Below are positions 9,001 through 59,470 of a DNA stretch of 64,000 nucleotides, piece by piece (position 1 is the stretch's first letter; every line of letters starts with the position of its first letter). Made by a program: the position numbers and the translations under genes. The notes below the pieces were generated by a model. The model did no database searches. It was not told the DNA's origin and worked only from the letters and a program-made list of their open reading frames with translations. Source of the stretch: a virus. Where the stretch lies: the IMG/VR virus record IMGVR_UViG_3300033146_001643, positions 12,984-76,983 of that record; one strand, written 5' to 3'.

Positions 9001-11579
9001 TTGGAGCTGGGTCTATAATATATGATACTGATAACAATTATACGGAAATTGGTACTATGTACAATAATAGTGTAAACTTATCATTAAAAATATTAAGTAC
9101 TACAACTAATAATGACGGAACTTCTATTTTACCTTACACGTCTAAGTACGCAGAAAAAATATTTATGAATTATGCTGATATATTAGGTAAAGACATACTA
9201 TCTGTACAAGATTATAAAGATATATGGCGTGCTACTAAACAGCTTATAGTTAGTAAAATTATATATAATACTACTAATGCAGATAGTTTAGCAAACTTAC
9301 GTAAAAGTTTATTTTTTGGAGATACTTCATTAGGAGTACAGCTTAAAAACGTAGAAAATGAGCCGTGGTTTAAAGAAAATAGATTCTTACTAAATGGTAT
9401 AAATAGATTAATTGTTAAAGATGATAATGTTATAAAATATAATAAAGAAACGTCTAAATATGAAGCATTAAACAATACAACTCCTATATTAGTTAAATAT
9501 GAAATGGGGGTTAAGAAAGATACAGATGACTATAGAAATATAGAAGCTATATTAGAGTTATTATATACATCTATTAGTGAATATGAAACTATAAAAGATA
9601 ATATATTAGATACAGATATACATAAAGCTATTATTACTAAATATGAATTTGCTCAAAGTTTAGTTAACTATACTATATTAGAAGGAGGTATACAAAATGC
9701 TCAAAACTGGGTTAAGTATTTACCAATATCATATTTAGAAGCTATAGGATTTAATAAATCAATTAGAGATATAAACTTTAATTCTATTGATGTATATGAT
9801 ACAATTAGTAGCCCAGAAGTAATTATACGACAATATCTACAACATAACCCTAAAAAGGCTAAAACTTTTAATCCACAATATGTTAAAAGCACTACTAAAA
9901 ATAATAATATAATCACATTACCATCTGCGTATGAAAAAAATTCTCCATATAGCGATATTATAAAAATAGAGATTATAGCTGGTGAAGAATATAAATCTTA
10001 TCCACAATATATTAAATATTATGATGTAGCAACACATAAATATTATTTGTATGAAAACACAGATAAAAATAAAAATGAAACTGATATAATATTTAGAAGA
10101 TTGCCACTACTAGGAACTGATAAGTTAGGATTTAATGAATATGATGGAACAATACAGTATGCTCAAAGTAATTTAACAGATAAACAAATCTATACAGAAC
10201 AAGAATTAATTGAATTAAACAAAGTTACCGAGATAGCAACTATTCCTAATATGTTATCTAATATATATGATGATACAATATTAACAACTCCTACTAGTGA
10301 AAGTATTTGGAATAGAGTAGAGGAGTTAGCTAATAACAATACTATGTTTAGTGTAGCAGCTAAAATATTGTTGGCGAATAAAGATTTAGCTAAAGAATTT
10401 GAAGTAACTATTAATAATTCAGGTGCACGTGGTATGACTAGAGTACATAATAATACAAAAGATTTAAAAACAATAGATATATCACCTAGACTATTTGAAA
10501 CTACTAAAACTAGTGGTAATGTAGAAGCACAACAAACTGAATTAAATGAGATAGTTTTACATGAAATGTTACATGGAGTATTATCTAAAATTATAAATAA
10601 TGCTATGAATGGTGTTGGCAATAATAATACCATTAAAGCAGTACAAGAATTAGATAACTTACGAAAAAGTATAATAAAAAATAACCAAGTTGAATTTAAT
10701 GCTTATATGGATACTAGGGGTGTATCAAGTACAGCTGAAAATATAGCTAAATTTGAAGGATTAACTAATATACATGAATTTTTTAGTTATGCTTTTACTA
10801 ATAGCAGTTTTCAAAACTTTTTAAATACACAGGCTAGAACAGATAATGGTAAGGGTACTTTATTAAATCAATTATTAGAGTTATTAAGCGTTATTTTAGA
10901 TACTACTATATTAGAGAATATTGCAGAAGATAAAGCTTTATATCAAGTATTAAGTATGGGAGTAACTGCTTTTACTAAAATCATACCGCCTAATACTCTG
11001 ATAAATAATAATTCAAATAATAATTATTCAGCTATAACATCAAAATCTTTAAATCAAGCTTATATAGATAATAAGTTAATTAATAAAGATAATACGTATA
11101 AACGTTATAGTATAACAGATAATAACTATAAAAAAATATTAAAACAAGTAGCTAATATAAATAAACAAAAATTACCATATAAAGCTAAAATAATAAAAAT
11201 AGTTGGAGAACGTGGAGATAATAGACCTATGGCGGCAATTGATAAATATTATAAATATTCTGTAGAACAACAATTATATAATAACTCTTTTGTAGAACCT
11301 ATAAAACCGTTATCTTTGCAGGATATACAAAATAAATATGAATTAACTACTAAAACTGGTATTATGAAAGCAGTAATACCAACAAATAGTAATTATGAAA
11401 GATTACTACAAACAACAATAAAAATAAATAATGATATAGCAGTTAATCATATAGCAAATGTTATTAAAACCAAAATTAACAATAAAACAATGTATACAAT
11501 AGAGTTATTAAATACATCAACTCCTGTTGATATATTATATGCTAAAGCTACTAATAACACTAATAAAATAGACTGTTAA
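3..11579 (+). CDS. Giant virion RNA polymerase polyprotein (crAss-like, phi14:2 gp66-type core) with C-terminal zincin metalloprotease domain; 5'-truncated by the window
   Basis: Frame has no stop from nt 3 to the listed ATG at 213. RIPNQGHSSM (7542) and MGADFDFD (DFDFD 7659-7673) are the two-barrel RNAP catalytic motifs. HEMLH (10560-10574) plus downstream HEFFSYAF is a zincin signature. Confidence 0.92.
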   Translation, partial: NRPAFITDNKVEQITRYKKVLKNKLKAIESQLKTFENADNKIVLNNTTTENALTDIDNITDLLVEEELLKMNSFVNNASYKYIIKRSTLSKVKEQKNKLYEATKLAQKKARDKKVKAVKTRMAKDIKNTITRNKKKDIKKAQEVNTTDNTTIKNTKDVEIKNTTSKDNNTIISGEVIVKQVRAQEVVDALKAILVLLDDTEAVQKIVQQLDDFNAKNQYKEQLSTLIAITKQLVIEYNGDSLITDIINKQLAEVIVLENIRNANNTQTKVSNKIDNLTNEQLSTEKEIDIIKSSKVAKPILITPQNTEELVGIIDILKTIILLLPENKDTKIVSNKLDTLNTETLDSTDIDNLLALTNNIINSSKIDVDIKLTIQNLYSNAIINNKTRLANNEITNAANDLLNTFEAITSDTTASDAIKASKRGAAFLNLIALAAKDVKSIGLDMYRDTYKRVLVANNWKENDIKRIHEMFSTLIPFAETSVGHAPSTYDIAWQFKNTVNYKGDIIDMAVQTGNTGKPYGFSENSSIEQQTEQVAITAKNYKKVNNPSESIANKEQEGVLDKSTGKYINVDNVTTFSVADNINIGDEIIFKVDTHYDGYIITDIGERVIWEDYSKNLGKTSSEYINNVPIKITTKDGKLLGYLHTINWLSESNNNVQDNIDIAAHSTNLNQIRRTIINSDTPIISTVTVKKAGSINTTYDNSKNLVSVQMPNLKNGAIVVFRNGKFEQVKNKSVAVDNLHWFNDFIFSGMPAVLTTMSNGETYAVPVTSTKLGDKVNSELLNGIINLIQLYASPKTEENKISRNNIAKEFGFDSLSATTLYTIISKLVYLEGFTDETIMDLAANQDSKVRDLFNINKKTGTIRFATTATNDKITPYTIYELHQNGNIFIKKPNKDKQILDKQQLTNSLDDILVKLSSILKNKVVNTDLEMLNNSEVFMIPYTDDDGIKVVKFESYEEFIKTKLLTNIVEKRQSIGGKIKIIHSVQSTVEFDSTFANTTRQEDSDIATNIKDSIIEKETSPLDDLFGKQESMEEYTAKQLSKPKLTITSEQQEQLKNLGYTQEEINKINPAVVTSILTYKIKPAVEVTISTEEKNIKLKAAREARLLKRKSKKKTTKKIINSFEAITSNNNTFSALSSTDNITNILDAALKESLIPGLSSYEQHTVLMNTINIIKDHIDGDWTKESISQTIEAIFNHYVDISIALDIVKDEQELDVIEDISEESEAIQNLIDTFRKLSLPRILSMKSIYDVISDDANYNKLVDIVLKDLQTHGIQLTQQVDAIDETTDSEMENDNETSDITIRNKWNIENASVNTFDRTSSEFKAIIRTIPQMDFVHNTDGTIKFENGEPVMQKILNVMGTTEFVEPERIQQELFLLLQKFSHLSTGEKYNAYIKTLLSTDHNTAHLVVLGKMFQEASDKIKAELINTISTQKTNAAIVIWKKNLGVDNNVHYGMYVKNSSKPHELDKLRSIWNSHQTQQITNKLIENNAKGLPIVKATRVAYWQKYYMSMLTDIKVKNLLIHAENKNNKNNKTKRKLLELPNMPDNLVLKLFNEIGINLTQEQLNELKHIETNELLKSFFNHKNMPSVFRITRYPDLFIPNGLIDTMIKDMGNPLIDELLFENNPLTSINSKVLDAIANVQLSIEGGYGTTTFTRGNGTMQQTYSQNTALSHKMNRLLDIKELPNGGQEMSSEFNMHANSNIQYSGRDNNGEHKSKWLDDIENGKAGQFQVGVVDSLKQGGVDKSAVLRTKATRNELLVDELARFTNSGNKTAQFLILAFSDKSTAATITAPKIVTDISFSNNKPKFRQLQRNQIWQYILLPEVDRINNHAKRIIDGTITRNTSGNQYYEGGLLFQLTPYLNTHELMLGDKAMRNEDGTIDVTPETKQLLIDVVEKEILASAEETKADMLSAGMFRTRTVKNKNDNSETTIDELHFVDKQYLRTLDNTLTTKQKLQYIAIDFAFNKAIATTEFTKLFGGDMANVYKNKGISKNKQLNTFIKNNKFNYVQYLNANKNILQQQIAKQWGEYIKRMAKDIAPGIDGYWVDSEGRNHNIFNQAYINDLSLDLSGYTGVEGGDAQQYSTLKEFVIVQHGYGKISDDTYSELMAQIEEVELINKEIIDKNKDKPLSEILPLLEHVDLTNDYLTELEEAVRISPLKPVYVGDVINEEQGRIDKKYIKVAVFPLIGNATTGTEIDYLRRRMEYEEIITGKPVNITYTSGVKIGLNNVSTVWKPNTTTNATHAVANKHGIENMQFEQLHRDGYRIQQEEPTHVHTETVTVTQANKLLWSGIMRILDNTGVLSGFKHNGSDMNVEELKEQFHTIKKQLSNNGVDQLNRRLGLNTDGTFKDLTKLVALIKDEMYTRNYPESDIASMEMTSIDGQQQIKLPIAFQGNGQRIEALINSIITKETIKTKMPGRSYVQVSGHGIGSVKSLSNTQKSDIVFTELYTDNHLKFVTNENGVVTYAQCLVPFNITAPNGELYKIEDFLITKDGKQLLDTTRLPKDILKLIGLRIPNQGHSSMLLLEIAGFLPSYMHDNIIVPPEITAQMGADFDFDHLYTYSFNTEQRLTAEAFNTYKEQFDNLIDTRGIIKYMNQQVAEKYVGLQNKLQTATEDDKKIISKEIKKLQLKAKKKLYIEFLNNGNNVVIAKINSAVTDYSIASKEELQNAYVETFHTVLSHTAVAKKMTTPLDLPYLASEADKIDKIINSIGENNFNPLSTRFSTDMYLANQAGKLGVAIQSIASTFLALIEDKSLKLTNSVNRNKIDLNIKISTDNGVIKLNKLGLGNYTNTKGDNISNADILLMLQNEAVDNAKNLNLASLFYNKDTASIYNVLAMLISNNKETLPLEFLVRFINQEAIKSYINKLQETSSTIAEFTPNAKQKIFDDLLKEYINKGANKTEINNYVGTISNGNYTYTYTESDLLKALKSKKRDSNYYQLQAETLIFVKTLMDNVIQPVQNVISATNGIDTVGLGKDIFTTIAKQQAVQTYLLENSVVLGAGSIIYDTDNNYTEIGTMYNNSVNLSLKILSTTTNNDGTSILPYTSKYAEKIFMNYADILGKDILSVQDYKDIWRATKQLIVSKIIYNTTNADSLANLRKSLFFGDTSLGVQLKNVENEPWFKENRFLLNGINRLIVKDDNVIKYNKETSKYEALNNTTPILVKYEMGVKKDTDDYRNIEAILELLYTSISEYETIKDNILDTDIHKAIITKYEFAQSLVNYTILEGGIQNAQNWVKYLPISYLEAIGFNKSIRDINFNSIDVYDTISSPEVIIRQYLQHNPKKAKTFNPQYVKSTTKNNNIITLPSAYEKNSPYSDIIKIEIIAGEEYKSYPQYIKYYDVATHKYYLYENTDKNKNETDIIFRRLPLLGTDKLGFNEYDGTIQYAQSNLTDKQIYTEQELIELNKVTEIATIPNMLSNIYDDTILTTPTSESIWNRVEELANNNTMFSVAAKILLANKDLAKEFEVTINNSGARGMTRVHNNTKDLKTIDISPRLFETTKTSGNVEAQQTELNEIVLHEMLHGVLSKIINNAMNGVGNNNTIKAVQELDNLRKSIIKNNQVEFNAYMDTRGVSSTAENIAKFEGLTNIHEFFSYAFTNSSFQNFLNTQARTDNGKGTLLNQLLELLSVILDTTILENIAEDKALYQVLSMGVTAFTKIIPPNTLINNNSNNNYSAITSKSLNQAYIDNKLINKDNTYKRYSITDNNYKKILKQVANINKQKLPYKAKIIKIVGERGDNRPMAAIDKYYKYSVEQQLYNNSFVEPIKPLSLQDIQNKYELTTKTGIMKAVIPTNSNYERLLQTTIKINNDIAVNHIANVIKTKINNKTMYTIELLNTSTPVDILYAKATNNTNKIDC

Positions 11580-15643: not shown

Positions 15644-15683
15644 AAAAAGAGCATACCATTTGAATGATATGCTCTTATTTATT
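15644..15683. terminator. Bidirectional intrinsic terminator between convergent modules
   Basis: AAGAGCATA (15647-15655) / TATGCTCTT (15668-15676) stem with an A-tract on the left and a T-rich tract on the right. Confidence 0.8.
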
Positions 15684-25281: not shown

Positions 25282-26001
25282 TTATGCAAATATATCTGCG
25301 GTTGATGCAGAATTTGTATCTGTTTCTACATTGTTTTCTGTTGCACTAGTATCTGTTGTAGTATTTTCAGCTAATTTTTCTTTTAAATAATCTGGGTATT
25401 CACCATTTAGATTTTTGTATTCTTCGTTATAATCTCTAGTTCTAGTTAATTTGTACCCACGTTCAATAGATACTTCATCATCATTTATTTGATATGTAAA
25501 ATCTTCTAATTCTGTAGAAACAGCATACTCGTATTTATTAGTTATACTAAAGTCTATTAATTGTTCTCCTCTATTTATATATGCAGCTGAACTTCTATAT
25601 GTTCTAATTTGCCCTTTGGTGTAAGTAGCTGTTAAAACTCTCCCATTATCTTGCGGAGATAAAAATAAATCACCATTGTTATCTTGTAAAATTATAACTT
25701 TAGTTGATTTTGTTTTTAATTCCGCTCCAGGTTCATTAGAGATAACTTCTATTAATCCTAAAGCATAAGCATTATGTATATGTAATTCTACTATTTCTGT
25801 GTCATTAACTCTAGTTGTTACTAATAATACAAGTGTATTGGTTTGTTTGTCTCCTGGATTAATTTTTACATTAGCCCCACTTCTAAAAGTCTTAGTGAAT
25901 CTTTTTACTTTTTTTAACCTTGTTCCTGTTGTTGTATCTTTTGTTAAATCCACATCAGTAAGAGATGTCGTTCCTTGAATACGTCTTAATTTTAAACTCA
26001 T
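25282..26001 (-). CDS. Hypothetical protein with acidic tail (239 aa, start MSLK)
   Basis: ATG at 26001 lies just downstream of a consensus promoter; tail ends TDTNSASTADIFA. Confidence 0.7.
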   Translation of the reverse strand: MSLKLRRIQGTTSLTDVDLTKDTTTGTRLKKVKRFTKTFRSGANVKINPGDKQTNTLVLLVTTRVNDTEIVELHIHNAYALGLIEVISNEPGAELKTKSTKVIILQDNNGDLFLSPQDNGRVLTATYTKGQIRTYRSSAAYINRGEQLIDFSITNKYEYAVSTELEDFTYQINDDEVSIERGYKLTRTRDYNEEYKNLNGEYPDYLKEKLAENTTTDTSATENNVETDTNSASTADIFA

Positions 26002-33686: not shown

Positions 33687-35767
33687 ATAGTTGATATTAC
33701 TGGTTCTGCTGTCATAGGTATTATATCACAAAATACTTTTCCAGCTTTTTCCATTGAATATTTTATTATATCATTTACTAACTCACTATACTCTGGACTT
33801 GTTTCTATTAAAATTTCATCATGTATTTGAGCTATTAACATCGCTTCTGTAAATAAGTTATTTTTTATTAGCTCTTTTCTTGCTATATATAAAGCTGCTT
33901 TAGTCATATCTCCAGCTGTACCCTGTGTAGGAGTATTCATTGCTAGTCGTTTATACAGCGAAAATAACTTAATAAACGCATACAGGGTATTCTTATTTAC
34001 TTTATATTTAAAGGTATTTATTTTGTTCCCTTCTAGTAAGTTATTTTTTAAATCTTTTACTAATATAGTACCTATTTTTGTCGTTAGTGTTTGTTCATAT
34101 ACTTTATATTTGCTGTAATTTGGTAATTTTCTTTTTCTGTGCGTGATATTATTAATCATAATATAACCTCGCTCTATAGATATTTCAGCTATATCTCTAA
34201 AATATTTTTTTTTAACAGGGAAAGAATTAATGGCAGCATTGTATAATTTTTCAGCTTCAACTAATTTAATATCAAACGATGTAGCTATAGTTTTTGTACT
34301 ACCACCATAGTCTAATTTAAAATTTAATGTTTTTGCCATACTTCGTTTTTTTTGTTTAAATTGTTCAGAGTACCCTGGATCATTTTTAGAAATAGTTTGT
34401 GGTACACCTTCTATCAATTCAAACATAATATTAGCTAATAAAGAGTGTAAATCACCGTCCCCATGTAAAAAGAAATCTATTAATTTTGGGTCTTTACATT
34501 TATTAGCTGTGATACGTAATTCTTGTCCTGAATAATCACAATTAATTATTTTATTATTATTTGCTGGTGTAAAACATTGCCTAACTTCTTTATCTGATGG
34601 TATATTTTGAATATTTGGTTTAAAACTACTAGTTCTACCAGTGGAGACTATTTGATTAAATGACGTATATAATCTACCATTATACACATGTTTATTTATA
34701 AAAGCCTTACCGTAAGTACCCACAGCTTTAGTATATTTTCTAAACTCTAGTAATATTTTTATTATTGGGTGTAAGTCAATATTAGCCATTAAAACGTTTT
34801 TTCCAACACTTTCTTTTTTTGTAGCTTTATCTATCAAATCTATATTTTTAATACGTCTTAAAAGAGCTAATACTTGCTTATTACTATTATAATTTATAGT
34901 TATTCCAAATAATCCTAACTCATCATTTTTATACAATTTAGTTTTTTCAACTATTATATTTAATTTATTAAATGCTTCTAATTGTTTATTTTTAAAAACA
35001 GTCTCTAAGTTTAACCATTTTTGTACATCTATTGGCATACCATTATACTCCATATCCCCTAATGCTAGAGATACTTGTGCTTCAAATGTGGCTAAATTAA
35101 AAATGTTATTTGTAATTGTAAACTTATTACGAAATCCATTTTTTTGTAAATCTATATCTTGTTTAATTAAAACTTCTAATGGAGCTATTATATCTTGTAC
35201 ACCATATAAGATATGTTGTAATTTATAAGGAGCACTTCCTATAGATAAAAACATTTTAGTAGTTTCTTTATCTAAAGCTATATTAAAATAATCATAATAT
35301 ACCCCAGCCATAGAAAATTTACTAAAGCCATGTTTCTTTCTATAAATAGAATTTTTAGCCGTATCAGTTTCTCCACTATCTAGTATTTTACTATTTAGCA
35401 AAATATCCTCTGCTATATCTAATGTAATATTATATTGTTTTAACATGTTATAATCAAATTTTAAATTAGCCCCATAAAATTTATAATTTGAAAGTAACGT
35501 TTTTAATCTTGTTATATTATAAAGTCTAGTATCTATTACTATTTGATTATTAATGTTACCTAATTGTAACATTATTACTTTATCCTTGTGTGGAGATAAA
35601 CCTGTAGTTTCTGTGTCTAATATTACTGGTGTATTTTCTAATAGTATATTTTTTATAATATCAAACACGTAAAAATTATTTACATATTTTATTGTGTATT
35701 CTTTGTTTAAAATAGTTACTTGTTTATCAGGATATATATTCATATCCCCTACATAACAATATATCAT
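33674..35767 (-). CDS. polA: Family A DNA polymerase with 3'-5' exonuclease, no 5'-3' exonuclease
   Basis: DTETTGL, NLKFD, TGRTSS..PNIQNIP, DYSGQELR (A), RSMAKTLNF..YG (B), QGTAGD, QIHDE (C). Likely start MIYC at 35767. Confidence 0.95.
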   Translation of the reverse strand: MIYCYVGDMNIYPDKQVTILNKEYTIKYVNNFYVFDIIKNILLENTPVILDTETTGLSPHKDKVIMLQLGNINNQIVIDTRLYNITRLKTLLSNYKFYGANLKFDYNMLKQYNITLDIAEDILLNSKILDSGETDTAKNSIYRKKHGFSKFSMAGVYYDYFNIALDKETTKMFLSIGSAPYKLQHILYGVQDIIAPLEVLIKQDIDLQKNGFRNKFTITNNIFNLATFEAQVSLALGDMEYNGMPIDVQKWLNLETVFKNKQLEAFNKLNIIVEKTKLYKNDELGLFGITINYNSNKQVLALLRRIKNIDLIDKATKKESVGKNVLMANIDLHPIIKILLEFRKYTKAVGTYGKAFINKHVYNGRLYTSFNQIVSTGRTSSFKPNIQNIPSDKEVRQCFTPANNNKIINCDYSGQELRITANKCKDPKLIDFFLHGDGDLHSLLANIMFELIEGVPQTISKNDPGYSEQFKQKKRSMAKTLNFKLDYGGSTKTIATSFDIKLVEAEKLYNAAINSFPVKKKYFRDIAEISIERGYIMINNITHRKRKLPNYSKYKVYEQTLTTKIGTILVKDLKNNLLEGNKINTFKYKVNKNTLYAFIKLFSLYKRLAMNTPTQGTAGDMTKAALYIARKELIKNNLFTEAMLIAQIHDEILIETSPEYSELVNDIIKYSMEKAGKVFCDIIPMTAEPVISTIWEH

Positions 35768-35851
35768 ACCTAATTGAATAAAAAACCAAAGAGTATCATT
35801 AGAAGTACATAATCTATTTACGCACAAATAATAACACTCTTTGGTTATTAA

Positions 35852-36319
35852 TTATCTTACTTTAGTAAGTACTAATCCTGTGGTATCTTTACCAGTAAGG
35901 ATTATTTTTATTAATTTTGCTTTATCCGCTGTGTCTGTTATAACTTCATCATTTAAAGTTATTTTGTACTCCTGTCCCTCGCTACTATTAATTGCAGCTA
36001 ATAATAATAACAAAGCTTTATATAAATCTATTATTATAGTATCGTCAGTTATTCCTTTAAGGAGTATATTTGATACTAACGTAATTGTTTGCTCAATATT
36101 ATTATTTATAAAAGCCATTGCTGCTTCTAACAGTGAATTTTGTAGAATTATATGTTTAATTCTCGCAAAATTGTTTACACCAAATTTAAAATTTTTAGCT
36201 CTGCATGAACTTGTTGTTTCTATCAAAGCTCTAATCGTTTCTATTTGGGTACTTATAGCAACATCTGTTAATTCAGTTACTAGCGTAATAATAGTTTCAT
36301 TAACTTTATTATTTTCCAT
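35852..36319 (-). CDS. Hypothetical protein
   Basis: 155 aa ORF, TAATG coupling. Confidence 0.65.
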   Translation of the reverse strand: MENNKVNETIITLVTELTDVAISTQIETIRALIETTSSCRAKNFKFGVNNFARIKHIILQNSLLEAAMAFINNNIEQTITLVSNILLKGITDDTIIIDLYKALLLLLAAINSSEGQEYKITLNDEVITDTADKAKLIKIILTGKDTTGLVLTKVR

Positions 36320-37666: not shown

Positions 37667-38314
37667 TTAATAATTTAAGTCTCCAAATATATTAGTATTG
37701 CCACTAGTTTTACAAAAATCACATATAATTATTCTTTGATTTTTAGTTATTATAACTTGTCCACAATTAGGACATGTAACTATATTATATCCTAAAGCTT
37801 GTAACTCTTTTTGTAACAATAGTTGCTTACTTTTAGATTTATGCCTATACATAGCTTTTAAACTTGCATTAGTTGTAGTGAGAATGAAGTCTAATATAGC
37901 CCCTAGTATGTGTGAATCATTAAGTATATTCTCTATATCCCAATCACTTGAATTTGGGGCATTTGAATAATTAGATATAAATCCGTCGCAACTAGTATAA
38001 TTATTTTTTAAATAGATACTCCATTTATCTTTAAATTTATTCACTATATTTTTAATAGAAGTAATATTAGTATTTGTTAATATTATTTCTACGTCTATAA
38101 TATCATTTCTAAAGTTATACTCTCTAGGTGAGCTAACTTGCTCAAATATTATTTCATGTACAAATTTTCTTAATCTATTAGCTACATAATCTGTTATATG
38201 ATATGCTGCTATTTCGTTATCTTCAATGAAGTTCTCTTTAATCTTTTTTTCAAAAATTGTTCCGTAGAATCCTGGAAACATTGGTAACCACGTTTGTATT
38301 TTATATGTCTTCAT
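37667..38314 (-). CDS. Hypothetical protein with C-terminal Zn ribbon
   Basis: FPGFY, SPREYNF, YTSCDGFIS; CPNC...CDFC. Confidence 0.7.
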   Translation of the reverse strand: MKTYKIQTWLPMFPGFYGTIFEKKIKENFIEDNEIAAYHITDYVANRLRKFVHEIIFEQVSSPREYNFRNDIIDVEIILTNTNITSIKNIVNKFKDKWSIYLKNNYTSCDGFISNYSNAPNSSDWDIENILNDSHILGAILDFILTTTNASLKAMYRHKSKSKQLLLQKELQALGYNIVTCPNCGQVIITKNQRIIICDFCKTSGNTNIFGDLNY

Positions 38315-38663
38315 TTATTGTGTTATTATGTAAATATATACTAGAGTAGATTCTAAATTTACCGTCTATAAATATAATTGTTATTAGACAGTTATTAGTT
38401 GCTATATATTCTGCTGCTGTGCAGTTAGTCCCATAATAATTATCTGTATGCCATGGTGTATATAAAGTGAATTTAGTTGTATCCCGCCATTCATTAATAA
38501 TCATTACAGTTGTATAACTTTCATTAAAAACAAAAGTAGTTGTATTACATAATATTCCTAAATTACTATTTAATTTAGGGATATTCAATCCTAAATTATA
38601 TTGGGCAATAACAGCCCCATGTAATAACATTATAATTATTATTATTTGTATTAACTTTTTCAT
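38301..38663 (-). CDS. Exported hypothetical protein
   Basis: Signal peptide MKKLIQIIIIIMLLHGAVIA|Q. Confidence 0.6.
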   Translation of the reverse strand: MKKLIQIIIIIMLLHGAVIAQYNLGLNIPKLNSNLGILCNTTTFVFNESYTTVMIINEWRDTTKFTLYTPWHTDNYYGTNCTAAEYIATNNCLITIIFIDGKFRIYSSIYLHNNTINEDI

Positions 38664-38804
38664 AGTAGTTCTATTAAAAATTTATATTTGAAATTTGTAC
38701 CAGTATAACATACGATAGTTATTAATATTAATAATATTATCACCTCCAACTACTTCTTTCTCAACTAGTTATGTTGATATTCTAATAGCGGTGAACTGGT
38801 TTAG

Positions 38805-38846
38805 TAATTGACATTTTGAAAATGTCAATTATTTTGTATACCTTTG
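38805..38846 (+). promoter_or_regulatory. Antisense Bacteroidota-type promoter overlapped by a 27-bp palindromic operator
   Basis: TTTG (38815-18) - 20 nt - TACCTTTG (38839-46); TAATTGACATTTT-G-AAAATGTCAATTA (38805-38831). Confidence 0.72.
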
Positions 38847-38852
38847 CAGAAT

Positions 38853-38930
38853 CATTGTTAATAGGAAAAGGCTTTAGTGAGCAGAGCGAGCAGTTTTAGA
38901 TGTGATCACTAAGCTACCAATTAATAATAC
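38853..38930 (+). ncRNA. Candidate ~75-nt hairpin small RNA
   Basis: Starts at the predicted TSS. Outer stem ATTGTTAAT/ATTAATAAT has a G-U valid on +; inner stem TTAGTGA/TCACTAA. Confidence 0.45.
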
Positions 38931-38935
38931 TTGCC

Positions 38936-39781
38936 CTAATCTTTATTATCAATAATATATGTTTCTAATTTTGATATAATTTCTCCACCATATTGATTTT
39001 TAGTAGCTGATATAAATTCTGCTATGGTAAACTTATCATTTTTTAAATCAATATTGTTTTCTGCTATAAATGCATTTCTACCAATCTCACAAGAATTTGT
39101 TAATATGTGATGCCATGTATAAAGTATTTCAGCTTTATATTTATCCGTATTATTAAATTTATCCACAAATTCAATAATACGCTCTCTAACTGATAATCTA
39201 TCAAAAATTTTGATATTTAAAGCTTCTATAGCTTTTTGTATAGACTCCCCATGAGCAAATAGATTATCTTGTTTAGCTATATAACATTTCGTTATTGTTA
39301 AATCATTATTTACTATAGCTCCATAAGCAATATTTTTCTTAATATTGTATATAATAGTTTTGATTTTATCTATTAAATATATTCTATTACCATCTAAATT
39401 TATAATTTTATTGCTATTATCATAACCATAACCATTACCATAACCATAACCATCACCAGTACCATAACCAATACCATAACCATCACCAGTACCAGAACCA
39501 TCACCAGTACCAGCACCATAACCAATACCAGCACTATAACCAATACCATCACCAGTACCATAACCAATACCATCACCATCACCATCACCATAACCATCAC
39601 CAGTACCATAACCATAACCAATATCATCACCATCACCATAATCATCACCATCACCATAACCATAATCATCACCATAACCATAACCAATATTATCACCATC
39701 ACCATAACCATAACCAATATTATCATAACTATAATTATAAGTAATATTCGCTGCCCACTTATTGTAATCTATATTGTCCAT
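38936..39781 (-). CDS. Gly-rich (GYG/GDG) repeat protein with conserved C-terminal domain
   Basis: ~100 aa of G-x repeats, then FAHGE and WHHILT.SCEIGR..F. Confidence 0.8.
   Translation of the reverse strand: MDNIDYNKWAANITYNYSYDNIGYGYGDGDNIGYGYGDDYGYGDGDDYGDGDDIGYGYGTGDGYGDGDGDGIGYGTGDGIGYSAGIGYGAGTGDGSGTGDGYGIGYGTGDGYGYGNGYGYDNSNKIINLDGNRIYLIDKIKTIIYNIKKNIAYGAIVNNDLTITKCYIAKQDNLFAHGESIQKAIEALNIKIFDRLSVRERIIEFVDKFNNTDKYKAEILYTWHHILTNSCEIGRNAFIAENNIDLKNDKFTIAEFISATKNQYGGEIISKLETYIIDNKD
39421..39726 (-). repeat. Coding hexanucleotide-period repeat (GGTTAT/GGTGAT/GGTACT)
   Basis: On the + strand: repeated accata/accatc/accagt units. Confidence 0.9.
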
Positions 39782-40080: not shown

Positions 40081-40090
40081 AATTTTACTT

Positions 40091-40146
40091 TTTATTAGTT
40101 TTTATTTATTAGTTTCTATTTATTAGTTTCTATTTATTAGTTTTTA
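40091..40146. repeat. Tandem repeat, 4 x 14 bp TTTATTAGTTT(T/C)TA
   Basis: Units start at 40091, 40105, 40119 and 40133. Confidence 0.9.
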
Positions 40147-40912
40147 AATTAAATAATAAAAGCGAAAAGCTAATTATAGTAGAGTTACCTAAATAATTCC
40201 AGATTATTCGGACAATCACTTGTCTATTTCATAATGCTTAACTCGTAGTGTCTAAAGTAGGAATAATTTACTTATCTCAACTACAAGACTACATACATTA
40301 CCATAGGGTTTACTACTAAGCACCATATTCATAATATACTTGTTTAATAATTAACTTTTAACACGTCTGTTATTTTATCACTTTATTTCAGCACCTTTAT
40401 TACTAAAGATTAAAGTATGTAATGTATTGTCTACAGTAACGGGAATTGCCTCATTTATATACACTTCTTGGATTGTTGCTTTCATAAGCTATCATGTTAA
40501 TTCATGCTTCCTATATTACCTAACAGGATTTTACATACTCCAAGCTACACCATTAAGGTGATAACTTATACCGAGAACTTATTACCATAATATAGTAGGT
40601 TTACTGATTTTCTCCCGCTGTGATTTGAAACATATATTCAACAACATTAACATTATATTCAATATATTTATAATTTACTATAGCTACTACTTTTAGTGGC
40701 TCAATGTATTCTTTGTCGTCTCCCTTAAATCTATTTTCAGTAATAATTATTACTGCAACTAATTTTATTTGGTCTTTTATTTTACTTATACTTATTGCTA
40801 TAGCAAAGTAATTGCCATTTACCCCTATTTGATAAATTTTGTTAATAACCTCATAGTGTCAAGATTCATTATAAAGGATAATAGCATGATTCTATTGCCC
40901 TTTAGGTTATGA

Positions 40913-41551
40913 CTAATTTATAATAGTTAAATATATTTGATAAAATACTTTATAGTATTCTTTATTTGTATAATAACCTACATTATATAATTCTTTAAAG
41001 AATGTGAGTGGGGAAGCTGTTGTATGTATTGTTAGATAACGGTCAGATTCCCATAACTGTAGTAAGGTTGAAATAGCATTATCCACTGTAGTATAACTTT
41101 GAAAACTACATACTACTTCATAACGTTGTCCTCCGTAATACTCCACTGTAGGTGTTCTAATACCCATTCCTTTAATACCAAATGGATTATTTCGCTGCCA
41201 CAAATTATTAGCAAAAGGTGCTCCATGTGAAGTACTTGATTCTGATACGGCAATTGTAGTTATTACTGAAGCTAATTGCCTATAGTTTAAACTATAGGTG
41301 TTAGCTAAGGTTTTAAATTCTTTATTTGCTAGCACTAATTTCCTAAATAACATACCTACTTGTTTGCGGTCTTTATATGTCCAAGTAGATGTTTTTAATA
41401 TAATCGTTGTTTTAGTTGTTACTATATTATCTGTCTTTAGTATAGATAATATAGTTGACGTGTTATACTTTATAGGTGTTTTTTTAGTACTATTATTACT
41501 ATGTTGGTGTAGTAATAAGGCTAACGATAACATTAGTAATGTTTTTTTCAT
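40913..41551 (-). CDS. GH73/glucosaminidase (FlgJ-like) peptidoglycan hydrolase with N-terminal signal
   Basis: AVSES (catalytic Glu), NNPFGIKG, TVEY, FQSY, GYYTNKEY (YATDPxY-like). Confidence 0.8.
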   Translation of the reverse strand: MKKTLLMLSLALLLHQHSNNSTKKTPIKYNTSTILSILKTDNIVTTKTTIILKTSTWTYKDRKQVGMLFRKLVLANKEFKTLANTYSLNYRQLASVITTIAVSESSTSHGAPFANNLWQRNNPFGIKGMGIRTPTVEYYGGQRYEVVCSFQSYTTVDNAISTLLQLWESDRYLTIHTTASPLTFFKELYNVGYYTNKEYYKVFYQIYLTIIN

Positions 41552-41584: not shown

Positions 41585-41824
41585 AGTTGTTTCGGTGGTT
41601 GTTAGTTATTGGTTGGAAAAGCTATTGTTGGTTGGTGTTTTTAAGTGGGTAATAGTTGATGGTTATGTTGCGGTAGGGGTATAGCCTCCGAATTAAGTTC
41701 CCGCCCATCACATAATACCTATTTTAATCACCCACTTCTTACTAAGATACATTTCAAAACTAAATTTATTTATAATATATAGCTGTATTGTGTTTTTATT
41801 TTTGCGGTCTTTACAGCTTACGCT

Positions 41825-41864
41825 CCTCGAAGGCTAATCGGTATCACCTCGAAGGCTAATCGGT
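41825..41864. repeat. Direct repeat, 2 x 18 bp CCTCGAAGGCTAATCGGT
   Basis: Exact copies at 41825-41842 and 41847-41864 (22-bp period). Confidence 0.9.
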
Positions 41865-41960
41865 TACAAATCAGTGCTCCTCTGATAATACTGGTTTATA
41901 CCTTGTATGGTATAACTATTGTCTGAAAACACCTATAAACCATGGTGCAGCCAGAAATTT

Positions 41961-41999
41961 TTATAAAAGACACTAGCTAGTAGTTAGTGTCTTTTATAA
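41961..41999 (-). terminator. Intrinsic terminator-like long hairpin
   Basis: TTATAAAAGACACTAGCTA-G-TAGTTAGTGTCTTTTATAA, just after the stop of 42011-42367. Confidence 0.75.
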
Positions 42000-42010
42000 T
42001 TCCCTATATA

Positions 42011-42367
42011 TTACAAGAATAATAATGCATAGGAGTATTTCCCTCTTCGTGCTGTGCTACTAACTTTTAGGACTAATGTCCTCGAAGTAGTAGTTTCAAT
42101 TGTCAGTCCATCTAAATTGCCTGACAATATTATACCGTCCACGCTCATTGTAGTGTTTTCATCACCGCTAAATTGTATACGGTATTCCTTGTTAGCATTA
42201 AGTTGCAATGTTATCGTAGTAACATCGTTTCTTTTAACAATTCCAGAGAACCCTGTTAGCCAGATTCCTCTCCCTAAACTGCTAGCAACTGCATACTCGT
42301 CTAATTGTGCTGATGCACTTAGAGTAGTAATAATTGCCACTGCTAATAAAAATATATATTTATTCAT
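42011..42367 (-). CDS. Exported hypothetical protein (beta-sandwich-like)
   Basis: Signal peptide MNKYIFLLAVAIITTLSASA|Q. Confidence 0.7.
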   Translation of the reverse strand: MNKYIFLLAVAIITTLSASAQLDEYAVASSLGRGIWLTGFSGIVKRNDVTTITLQLNANKEYRIQFSGDENTTMSVDGIILSGNLDGLTIETTTSRTLVLKVSSTARRGKYSYALLFL

Positions 42368-58063: not shown

Positions 58064-59470
58064 ATGGGAACTAAAACACAAGCTATACCATATAATGAAT
58101 ACACTACAGCTGAAATTGCTGCGTTAACTAATATGGTAAAAGGAGAAATTGTTATAAATACAACAACACATTTAAGAGAAACGTATAATGGTAGTTCATG
58201 GATAAGTGAGACTAAAGCTGGTACTGGATTATTTGGTGATGTAGTAGGTGGAAATTATGCTGCGTTTGAAGCAGATGGTACTTTAGTATTTTATGGTGCT
58301 GCTACTATGTGGGAAAACTTACAAGTAAATGTTAATTCACTCCCTGTATCTGGAACACGCTCACCAGAAAGAGTAATAATAGCTAATGATGGCACAACTA
58401 CAATAGGACACGCTATGAGTTTTGACGGGGGTAATGATAATGGTACAGTTGCTTATTATGCTGGTATGGATACAACTAATTTAACTATAGCCATGTGGAT
58501 AAAACCTAATGTTGTTAATAATATTGAGTTATTGGATAGAAATATACCCAATGGGTTTGAATTTTATATAGATAACGGAAATTTGATTTTTGCACCGAGA
58601 GGTGGTACTAGAGTAACTGCTAATGGCATAATAGCTGGAGCAACTCAGTTTATTGTAGCAACGGCTAGAGTTGAAGGTAGTAATTTACGATGTAAATTAT
58701 ATATAAACGGAACTTCAGTAGCTGAACAAGTAATAGCCGCATCTTTAGCACAAGCATCTGGTGGGTATATTATAGGCGAATATAAAAGTGGTGGTTGGAA
58801 TTATGACGGTATTATAGATAACTTACAAACATATACAATAGTATTAACTGATGCTCAAATATTAGAGTTATATAATAATGGTGCTGGAACTAATAATTTG
58901 CCTACAGGTATAACGGCTAGTAAAAGTTTAATAATGTTCTTTCAAGATGATTTAATTAATCAAACAACTATGCTAGGAGCGTTAAATTTAGTACAGCATG
59001 GATTTACCTTTGTAGATGGCTTAGTTGGAATAACGTCTGGTAGTTTTGGTGTTACTGCTTTAAAATTTAAGGCTACATCTATAACAGAAATATTTTTTAC
59101 AGCTCAATTACCTCATTCTTATAAAGAGGGGACTGATATAGAGCCTCATAGTCATTGGGGTAAAATCGGTACTGCTACTGGTAACGTTCATTGGGGATTT
59201 GAATATATCTGGGTAAATGTTTCTGGTACTTTTAATAATACTAGTATAATTACAGCAAATCTTACTCCAAGTATTTCTAAAAAGCATGATGCAACCAATA
59301 TAGCAACATTAACTGGAACTGATAAAAAAATTAGTTCTATATTAATGTGTAGATTATATCGAGACCCCACTAATGTGGGTGATACATTTAATGATGATAT
59401 ATATTTGTATGATTTTGATTTTCATTTTCAACGGAATACATTAGGTTCACGCACTACGTGGGTAAAATAA
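58064..59470 (+). CDS. Fibre protein with LamG/concanavalin-like domain
   Basis: AMSFDG, TIAMWIK, KLYING, IIG, YDG.IDN.Q.Y...LTDAQI..LY; C-terminal QLPHSYKEGTDI.PH.HW. Confidence 0.8.
   Translation: MGTKTQAIPYNEYTTAEIAALTNMVKGEIVINTTTHLRETYNGSSWISETKAGTGLFGDVVGGNYAAFEADGTLVFYGAATMWENLQVNVNSLPVSGTRSPERVIIANDGTTTIGHAMSFDGGNDNGTVAYYAGMDTTNLTIAMWIKPNVVNNIELLDRNIPNGFEFYIDNGNLIFAPRGGTRVTANGIIAGATQFIVATARVEGSNLRCKLYINGTSVAEQVIAASLAQASGGYIIGEYKSGGWNYDGIIDNLQTYTIVLTDAQILELYNNGAGTNNLPTGITASKSLIMFFQDDLINQTTMLGALNLVQHGFTFVDGLVGITSGSFGVTALKFKATSITEIFFTAQLPHSYKEGTDIEPHSHWGKIGTATGNVHWGFEYIWVNVSGTFNNTSIITANLTPSISKKHDATNIATLTGTDKKISSILMCRLYRDPTNVGDTFNDDIYLYDFDFHFQRNTLGSRTTWVK

Follow-up and report, generated by a model that had tools for sequence, protein, structure and literature searches.

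Within a 272-bp non-coding spacer of a crAss-like phage, the two boxes of a host-type promoter lie on the plus strand, opposed to the minus-strand genes on either side, and are followed by an imperfect rod-like hairpin. The account we prefer, tentatively and at a probability put somewhat below even, is that this promoter is real and fires against the gene block to give a non-coding antisense transcript, the palindrome that overlaps its -33 box being a hairpin or terminator and not an operator. A Bacteroidota sigma-A promoter would then fire on the plus strand from about 38851–38853, and the non-coding transcript, opening with a moderately stable hairpin, would run antisense into the 3' end of the neighbouring gene for a Gly-repeat protein. 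Such a transcript could lower expression of the Gly-repeat gene, or read-through into the genes downstream of it, by RNA–RNA pairing or by head-on collision of polymerases, as with lambda OOP on cII. The palindrome would stop plus-strand transcripts coming from the left and would only incidentally provide the -33 box. If real, a host-polymerase promoter directed against early genes would amount to a simple shut-off once host-dependent transcription takes over. The spacer element is a single candidate and carries small weight.

Genomic setting of the spacer

The window, meaning the whole stretch of 64,000 nucleotides that was analysed, comprises bases 12984 to 76983 of a 76,983-bp IMG/VR virus record with a terminal repeat of 114 bp. 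Its layout is crAss-like, as the original prediction held. On the plus strand, a virion RNA polymerase gene of giant size, exceeding 3,800 codons, precedes a block of minus-strand genes, and a plus-strand structural block comes after it. The minus-strand block, described earlier as about 28 kb of genes around the element, was mapped at 15683–43438 and encodes RNR, primase, helicase, ligase and PolA, followed by small genes without assigned function. Matches to the capsid protein were all to crAss-like phages, and exclusively to those of Bacteroides, Flavobacterium and Cellulophaga (identity at most 34%), so the host is likely a member of the Bacteroidota. A host search among bacterial genomes returned no close match to the RNR gene of the phage.

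The spacer is one of the few truly non-coding gaps in the genome. No open reading frame of at least 30 aa is present on either strand, merely short stop-to-stop frames, and the earlier statement that no plus-strand reading frame lies behind the promoter is thus correct. The features of the spacer and of the two genes that border it are collected in Table 1.

Table 1. Positions in the window of the spacer, its sequence features and the bordering genes
Feature	Position	Strand	Description
120-aa gene	38301–38663	-	Signal-peptide-like N-terminus; downstream of the spacer
Non-coding spacer	38664–38935		272 bp between two minus-strand genes; three successive stem-loop domains
Second -7 box	38683–38690	+	TATATTTG, without a -33 box; ~115 nt upstream of the palindrome
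Multi-branch stem-loop domain	38699–38800		Closed by ACCAGT/ACTGGT; fold predicted on both strands
Palindrome	38805–38831		Perfect 13-1-13, TAATTGACATTTT G AAAATGTCAATTA; arms 38805–38817 and 38819–38831
-33 box	38815–38818	+	TTTG, at the palindrome centre; minus strand reads TTTC here
-7 box	38839–38846	+	TACCTTTG, 20 nt past the -33 box; fits TAnnTTTG
Predicted transcription start	38851–38853	+	Placed by the usual distance past a Bacteroidota -7 box
Imperfect rod-like hairpin	38853–38930	+	78 nt; outer stem 38854–38862/38920–38928, inner stem 38874–38880/38906–38912
Gly/Tyr/Asp-repeat gene	38936–39781	-	281 aa, conserved C-terminal domain; stop-codon end borders the spacer

The Gly-repeat protein is one of a family in which the N-terminal Gly/Tyr/Asp repeat varies and a C-terminal domain of some 150 aa is conserved; the family is present at five further loci and has no match in Pfam, PHROG or the PDB. 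The gene sits after a DUF6948 gene in three phages, and a distant homologue in a Riemerella phage was annotated by its depositors as 'ribonuclease inhibitor'. Signal-peptide-like starts were seen on three genes of the early side (38301–38663, 40913–41551 and 42011–42367), one of which encodes a glucosaminidase-domain protein; such a grouping of exported proteins in the early-side part of a crAss-like genome is unusual. Within the spacer itself, the plus strand at 38739–38747 has ATCACCTCC, which agrees in every base with the anti-Shine-Dalgarno end of 16S rRNA, and the minus strand reads GGAGGTGAT, possibly by chance. The host phylum of the phage is mostly without Shine-Dalgarno sites.

Conservation of the region could be followed solely over large distances. 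No close phage relative was found by blastn, and protein scans of IMG/VR with four neighbouring proteins and PolA recovered distant loci only. The closest homologues of the Gly-repeat protein, from a search of 5.8 billion proteins, are 58% identical over the conserved domain, whose gene lies upstream of the spacer, and a metagenome scan gave three loci. At all five loci examined that carry the Gly-repeat gene (protein identity at most 58%), the next gene abuts it and the spacer is absent. The nearest phage, with a PolA that is 54% identical, has the replication genes in common with this one but not the stretch in which the spacer lies. A covariance model built from the single rod sequence and run against 25 sources and five whole records matched only itself, the relatives being distant at no more than 58% protein identity. 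That a homologous element was found in no relative counts against the antisense transcript.

The candidate plus-strand promoter and its palindrome

Promoters read by the Bacteroidota sigma-A factor, in Bacteroides and Flavobacterium, consist of a -33 box TTTG about 19–21 nt upstream of a -7 box TAnnTTTG, and the distance from the -7 box to the start is sufficiently regular to place a start position. The promoter described in the original prediction, TTTG-N20-TACCTTTG on the plus strand, is present exactly and follows this consensus, with both the -7 box and a -33 box at 20-nt spacing. By itself, however, the motif is not significant, since its counts lie near expectation: the full two-box pattern occurs five times in the window (3.18 expected) and TAnnTTTG alone 102 times (109 expected).

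The position of such boxes relative to genes is more informative. In the 80 nt preceding a gene start on the same strand, TAnnTTTG was found 11 times against 3.8 expected, as judged with crude gene calls, and seven of these 11 boxes are TATATTTG, the commonest form in the phage. Boxes of this form stand 20–75 nt upstream of gene starts at 25287, 26031, 37684 and 41577 on the minus strand and at 59407 and 61009 on the plus strand, and probably serve host RNA polymerase as promoters of middle and late genes. Across the window, TATATTTG occurs 12 times on the sense strand and six times on the antisense strand. A start codon comes 20–39 nt after three of the 16 TTG-N18-22-TAnnTTTG sites (26031 and 37684 on the minus strand, 61009 on the plus strand). 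The gene-proximal two-box spacings of 18, 20 and 21 nt include the 20-nt spacing seen at 38815–38846. Host polymerase thus probably reads motifs of the TAnnTTTG type on this genome, and a perfect consensus in non-coding DNA is likely bound by it. As promoters of this kind seem to serve genes of the phage itself, initiation by host RNA polymerase at the predicted start, against the gene block, is plausible.

The coincidence of promoter and palindrome was also considered. The chance of a -7 box falling at the right spacing from the central TTTG of the palindrome was about 0.004, a post hoc estimate based on 117 sites per 154 kb, and the central base of the palindrome completes TTTG on the plus strand only (TTTC on the minus strand), likewise a post hoc point. 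The chance of some antisense consensus anywhere in the non-coding DNA of the window was estimated at 10–15%. A search for a promoter or motif shared among the gaps of the phage returned AT-rich noise only.

The perfect 13-1-13 palindrome reported earlier as centred on the -33 box was located there, its central G (38818) being the last base of that box. It has no second copy in the 76,983-bp genome and exceeds every other perfect palindrome there in length. When the genome was shuffled under a first-order Markov model, arms of at least 13 bp arose in 11 of 200 trials; the palindrome is unusual, not overwhelming. As RNA it folds into a hairpin with a stem of 12–14 bp (ΔG -12.0 on the plus strand and -10.1 on the minus strand, z about -5). 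On the plus strand the flank directly after it is the T-tail TTTTGTAT, so that a stable hairpin runs straight into a U-tract as in an intrinsic terminator, whereas the minus-strand flank, CTAAACC, has no U-tract.

For comparison, the genome was scanned for hairpins directly before T-runs. The intergenic terminator hairpins of the phage (15648–15675, 24304–24331, 41969–41991 and 55778–55801) have near-perfect stems of 8–12 bp and short loops; all four carry the T-run on the strand of the flanking genes and three carry one on the other strand as well. The palindrome resembles them in stem, short loop and T-run, but it alone has its T-tail solely on the strand opposite the flanking genes, and it overlaps a promoter. 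With the shape of the phage terminators and a T-tail on the plus strand, it looks like a plus-strand terminator as much as an operator, and judged on sequence it is more likely a terminator-type hairpin of the kind used elsewhere by the phage than the operator of a repressor.

In the original prediction, the palindrome was instead the site of a dimeric repressor, of phage or host, that would cover the -33 box and gate a discrete sRNA, a hairpin of about 78 nt. The perfect dyad symmetry centred exactly on the -33 box, the standing of the palindrome as the longest in the genome and the presence of a repressor (LexA) site in the lambda promoter pO (PMC5869508) all speak for such a design, which is nevertheless unlikely. 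The site is a single one, with no second copy found in the genome; no HTH or repressor family was detected among the 28 phage proteins scanned with Pfam; the form is that of a terminator; and the RNA would lack a defined 3' end. The SOS boxes of Bacteroidetes are GGA-N5-TCC and CTAA-N5-TTAG (PMC8565304), and as the palindrome fits neither, its identity as an SOS box was rejected. Searches of phage and bacterial genomes for the palindrome, as had been proposed, gave no further support. Its 20-nt core has three matches in 185,579 genomes, in unrelated contexts; a pattern with 16 specified bases has 25 unrelated matches in IMG/VR; and of the 41 IMG/VR matches to the palindrome plus -7 box, 26 belong to one coding family and the remainder are scattered, so that the arrangement does not recur beyond that family and chance matches.

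Fold, extent and possible roles of the predicted RNA

The stems described in the original prediction are present. RNAfold pairs 38854–38862 with 38920–38928, including one G-U pair, and pairs TTAGTGA with TCACTAA in the inner stem, and the other listed features of the rod are likewise in place. The fold is asymmetric, at -18.5 kcal/mol (z -3.1) on the plus strand and -11.6 kcal/mol (z -1.5) on the minus strand. The rod stands 520th among the 25,636 stretches of equal length in the genome, or within 2.7% after GC correction. A positive control for structure is provided by 35765–35862, between the gene for a 155-aa protein and PolA, where the minus strand forms a 26-bp hairpin followed by UUUUUUAUU and folds at -31 kcal/mol (z -7.3; plus strand -15.3); this is evidently a genuine terminator within the co-directional block. 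Being in the top 2–3% of windows and far weaker than this terminator, the rod is modestly structured.

The rod is followed by ACTTGCCCTAATC, and the proposed 78-nt RNA does not close with a hairpin and U-tract; no terminator-like site was found on the plus strand between 38144 and 42697, nor any stable fold in the region downstream of the rod. With no terminator behind the rod, a discrete 78-nt RNA is not predicted, and the small hairpin RNA proposed originally, whose fold is ordinary for this genome, was not borne out in that form. Transcription from the predicted start would instead read on into the Gly-repeat gene in antisense. The stop codon begins at 38936, 6 nt beyond the end of the rod, so overlap with the gene requires read-through; the position of the gene end agrees with the earlier remark that read-through would be antisense to it. 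The Rfam comparison that had been suggested matched no family: none reached its gathering score anywhere in the window, and with E values of up to 10 allowed for the spacer, chance-level matches to unrelated families were the only ones. A tRNA/tmRNA search found none, although the inner hairpin ends in ...GCTACCA.

Some of these results weigh against the antisense transcript, namely a promoter pattern at chance frequency, the missing terminator, the modest rod and a whole gap that is more structured on the minus strand. The same results fit a passive intercistronic spacer, whose stem-loops would serve the minus-strand polycistronic mRNA as a 3' stabiliser, weak terminator behind the Gly-repeat gene or processing sites, the plus-strand promoter being fortuitous or noise. 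We regard this as nearly as likely as the antisense transcript, with about one chance in three in its favour expressed loosely. The gap lies within a 28-kb co-directional block; read on the minus strand, the rod begins 6 nt past the stop codon and its inner stem is followed by TTTTCC; and the whole gap folds at -55.1 kcal/mol (z -2.9) on the minus strand against -53.0 kcal/mol (z -1.4) on the plus strand. A promoter motif at chance frequency is also what AT-rich DNA would give. In addition, no host-type promoter was found on the minus strand ahead of the 120-aa gene, so its expression needs read-through across the spacer. The minus-strand fold, however, lacks the geometry of a terminator, as the loop enclosed by the terminator-like stem would measure 25 nt; the palindrome has no U-tract on that strand; the real minus-strand terminators of the phage are far stronger; and the wobble pairs of the rod favour the plus strand.

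An RNA acting in trans, either a host-style sRNA resembling FopS and GibS or a decoy RNA, for example one that mimics a solitary CRISPR repeat, is very unlikely. Its predicted 5' end (AAUCAUUGUUAAU) is complementary to a start-codon-like region, and a FopS-like sequence is known from a Bacteroides phage (PMC11697453). The pairing with phage start regions was, however, equalled by 124 of 200 shuffled RNAs, and no Rfam family matched even at E up to 10. A 5' seed that is single-stranded, together with a terminator, defines the FopS and GibS families (PMC11697453); in the spacer RNA, the 5' end is paired in the outer stem and no terminator hairpin follows. The likeness to FopS/GibS of Bacteroides thetaiotaomicron lies in a Bacteroidota sigma-A promoter before a gene-less unit of less than 150 nt, and the spacer RNA differs in having no Rfam match, a paired 5' end and no terminator. 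As for a decoy, two 20-mers of the rod, searched for exact matches only in 185,579 genomes, gave none and one chance match, and hence no matching CRISPR repeat was found among exact matches. For the anti-defence decoy or carrier-state regulator imagined originally, there is no evidence at all.

The antisense transcript that we favour has its nearest counterpart in lambda OOP (pO-oop-tO), a short non-coding antisense unit that acts on cII and has a LexA site in pO (PMC5869508). Like OOP, the spacer unit adjoins the 3' end of a gene, would be transcribed against it by host RNA polymerase and has a palindrome in its promoter, and the proposed effect on a convergent mRNA is common to both. Unlike the spacer rod, OOP is provided with a terminator hairpin and covers the final 52 bases of cII. 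The two are unrelated in sequence, and no repressor for the spacer palindrome was found among the 28 phage proteins scanned.

No small RNA of crAss-like phages is described in the searchable literature, in agreement with the earlier statement that no such element was known in them. To our knowledge, almost nothing is known of how crAss-like phages control gene expression beyond the virion RNA polymerase.

Possible further gene-less units and minor observations

The second -7 box in the spacer suggests a more elaborate arrangement. An RNA that began near 38696 and stopped at the palindrome with its T-tail would be gene-less and about 140 nt long, with a predicted fold of -29.8 (z -3.1). The spacer would then hold two tandem gene-less plus-strand RNA units, the terminator of unit 1 forming the -33 region of unit 2, as a coupled terminator–promoter switch. 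Unit 1 would comprise the -7 box at 38683, a body at 38696–38800 and the palindrome as terminator, and unit 2 the consensus promoter and the rod; transcription or termination of unit 1, or a protein on the palindrome, would gate unit 2. We hold this to be improbable. If true, a terminator–promoter switch would set the antisense pressure on the early genes of a crAss-like phage.

The perfect 9-mer of the DnaA box, TTATCCACA, occurs six times in the window (0.68 expected), a count reached in none of 100 shuffles. The copies are dispersed, at 9998, 17244, 39159, 50498, 56630 and 58494, and with at least two of them in coding sequence the excess may be a codon effect. Positions 40081–40912 form an 832-bp region without a credible open reading frame, in which tandem TTAGTTTCTATTTA-like units occupy 40098–40145. 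A 460-bp gap after the gene for a 118-aa protein may be another gene-less unit. In its 41797–41997 part, a plus-strand -7-like box (TATTTTTG at 41797) is accompanied by a direct repeat of about 18 nt, CTCGAAGGCTAATCGGT, present twice within 41826–41865, and by an 18-bp bidirectional terminator at 41960–41997; the fold of this part has z of -3.8 and -3.4 on the two strands, showing no strand preference.
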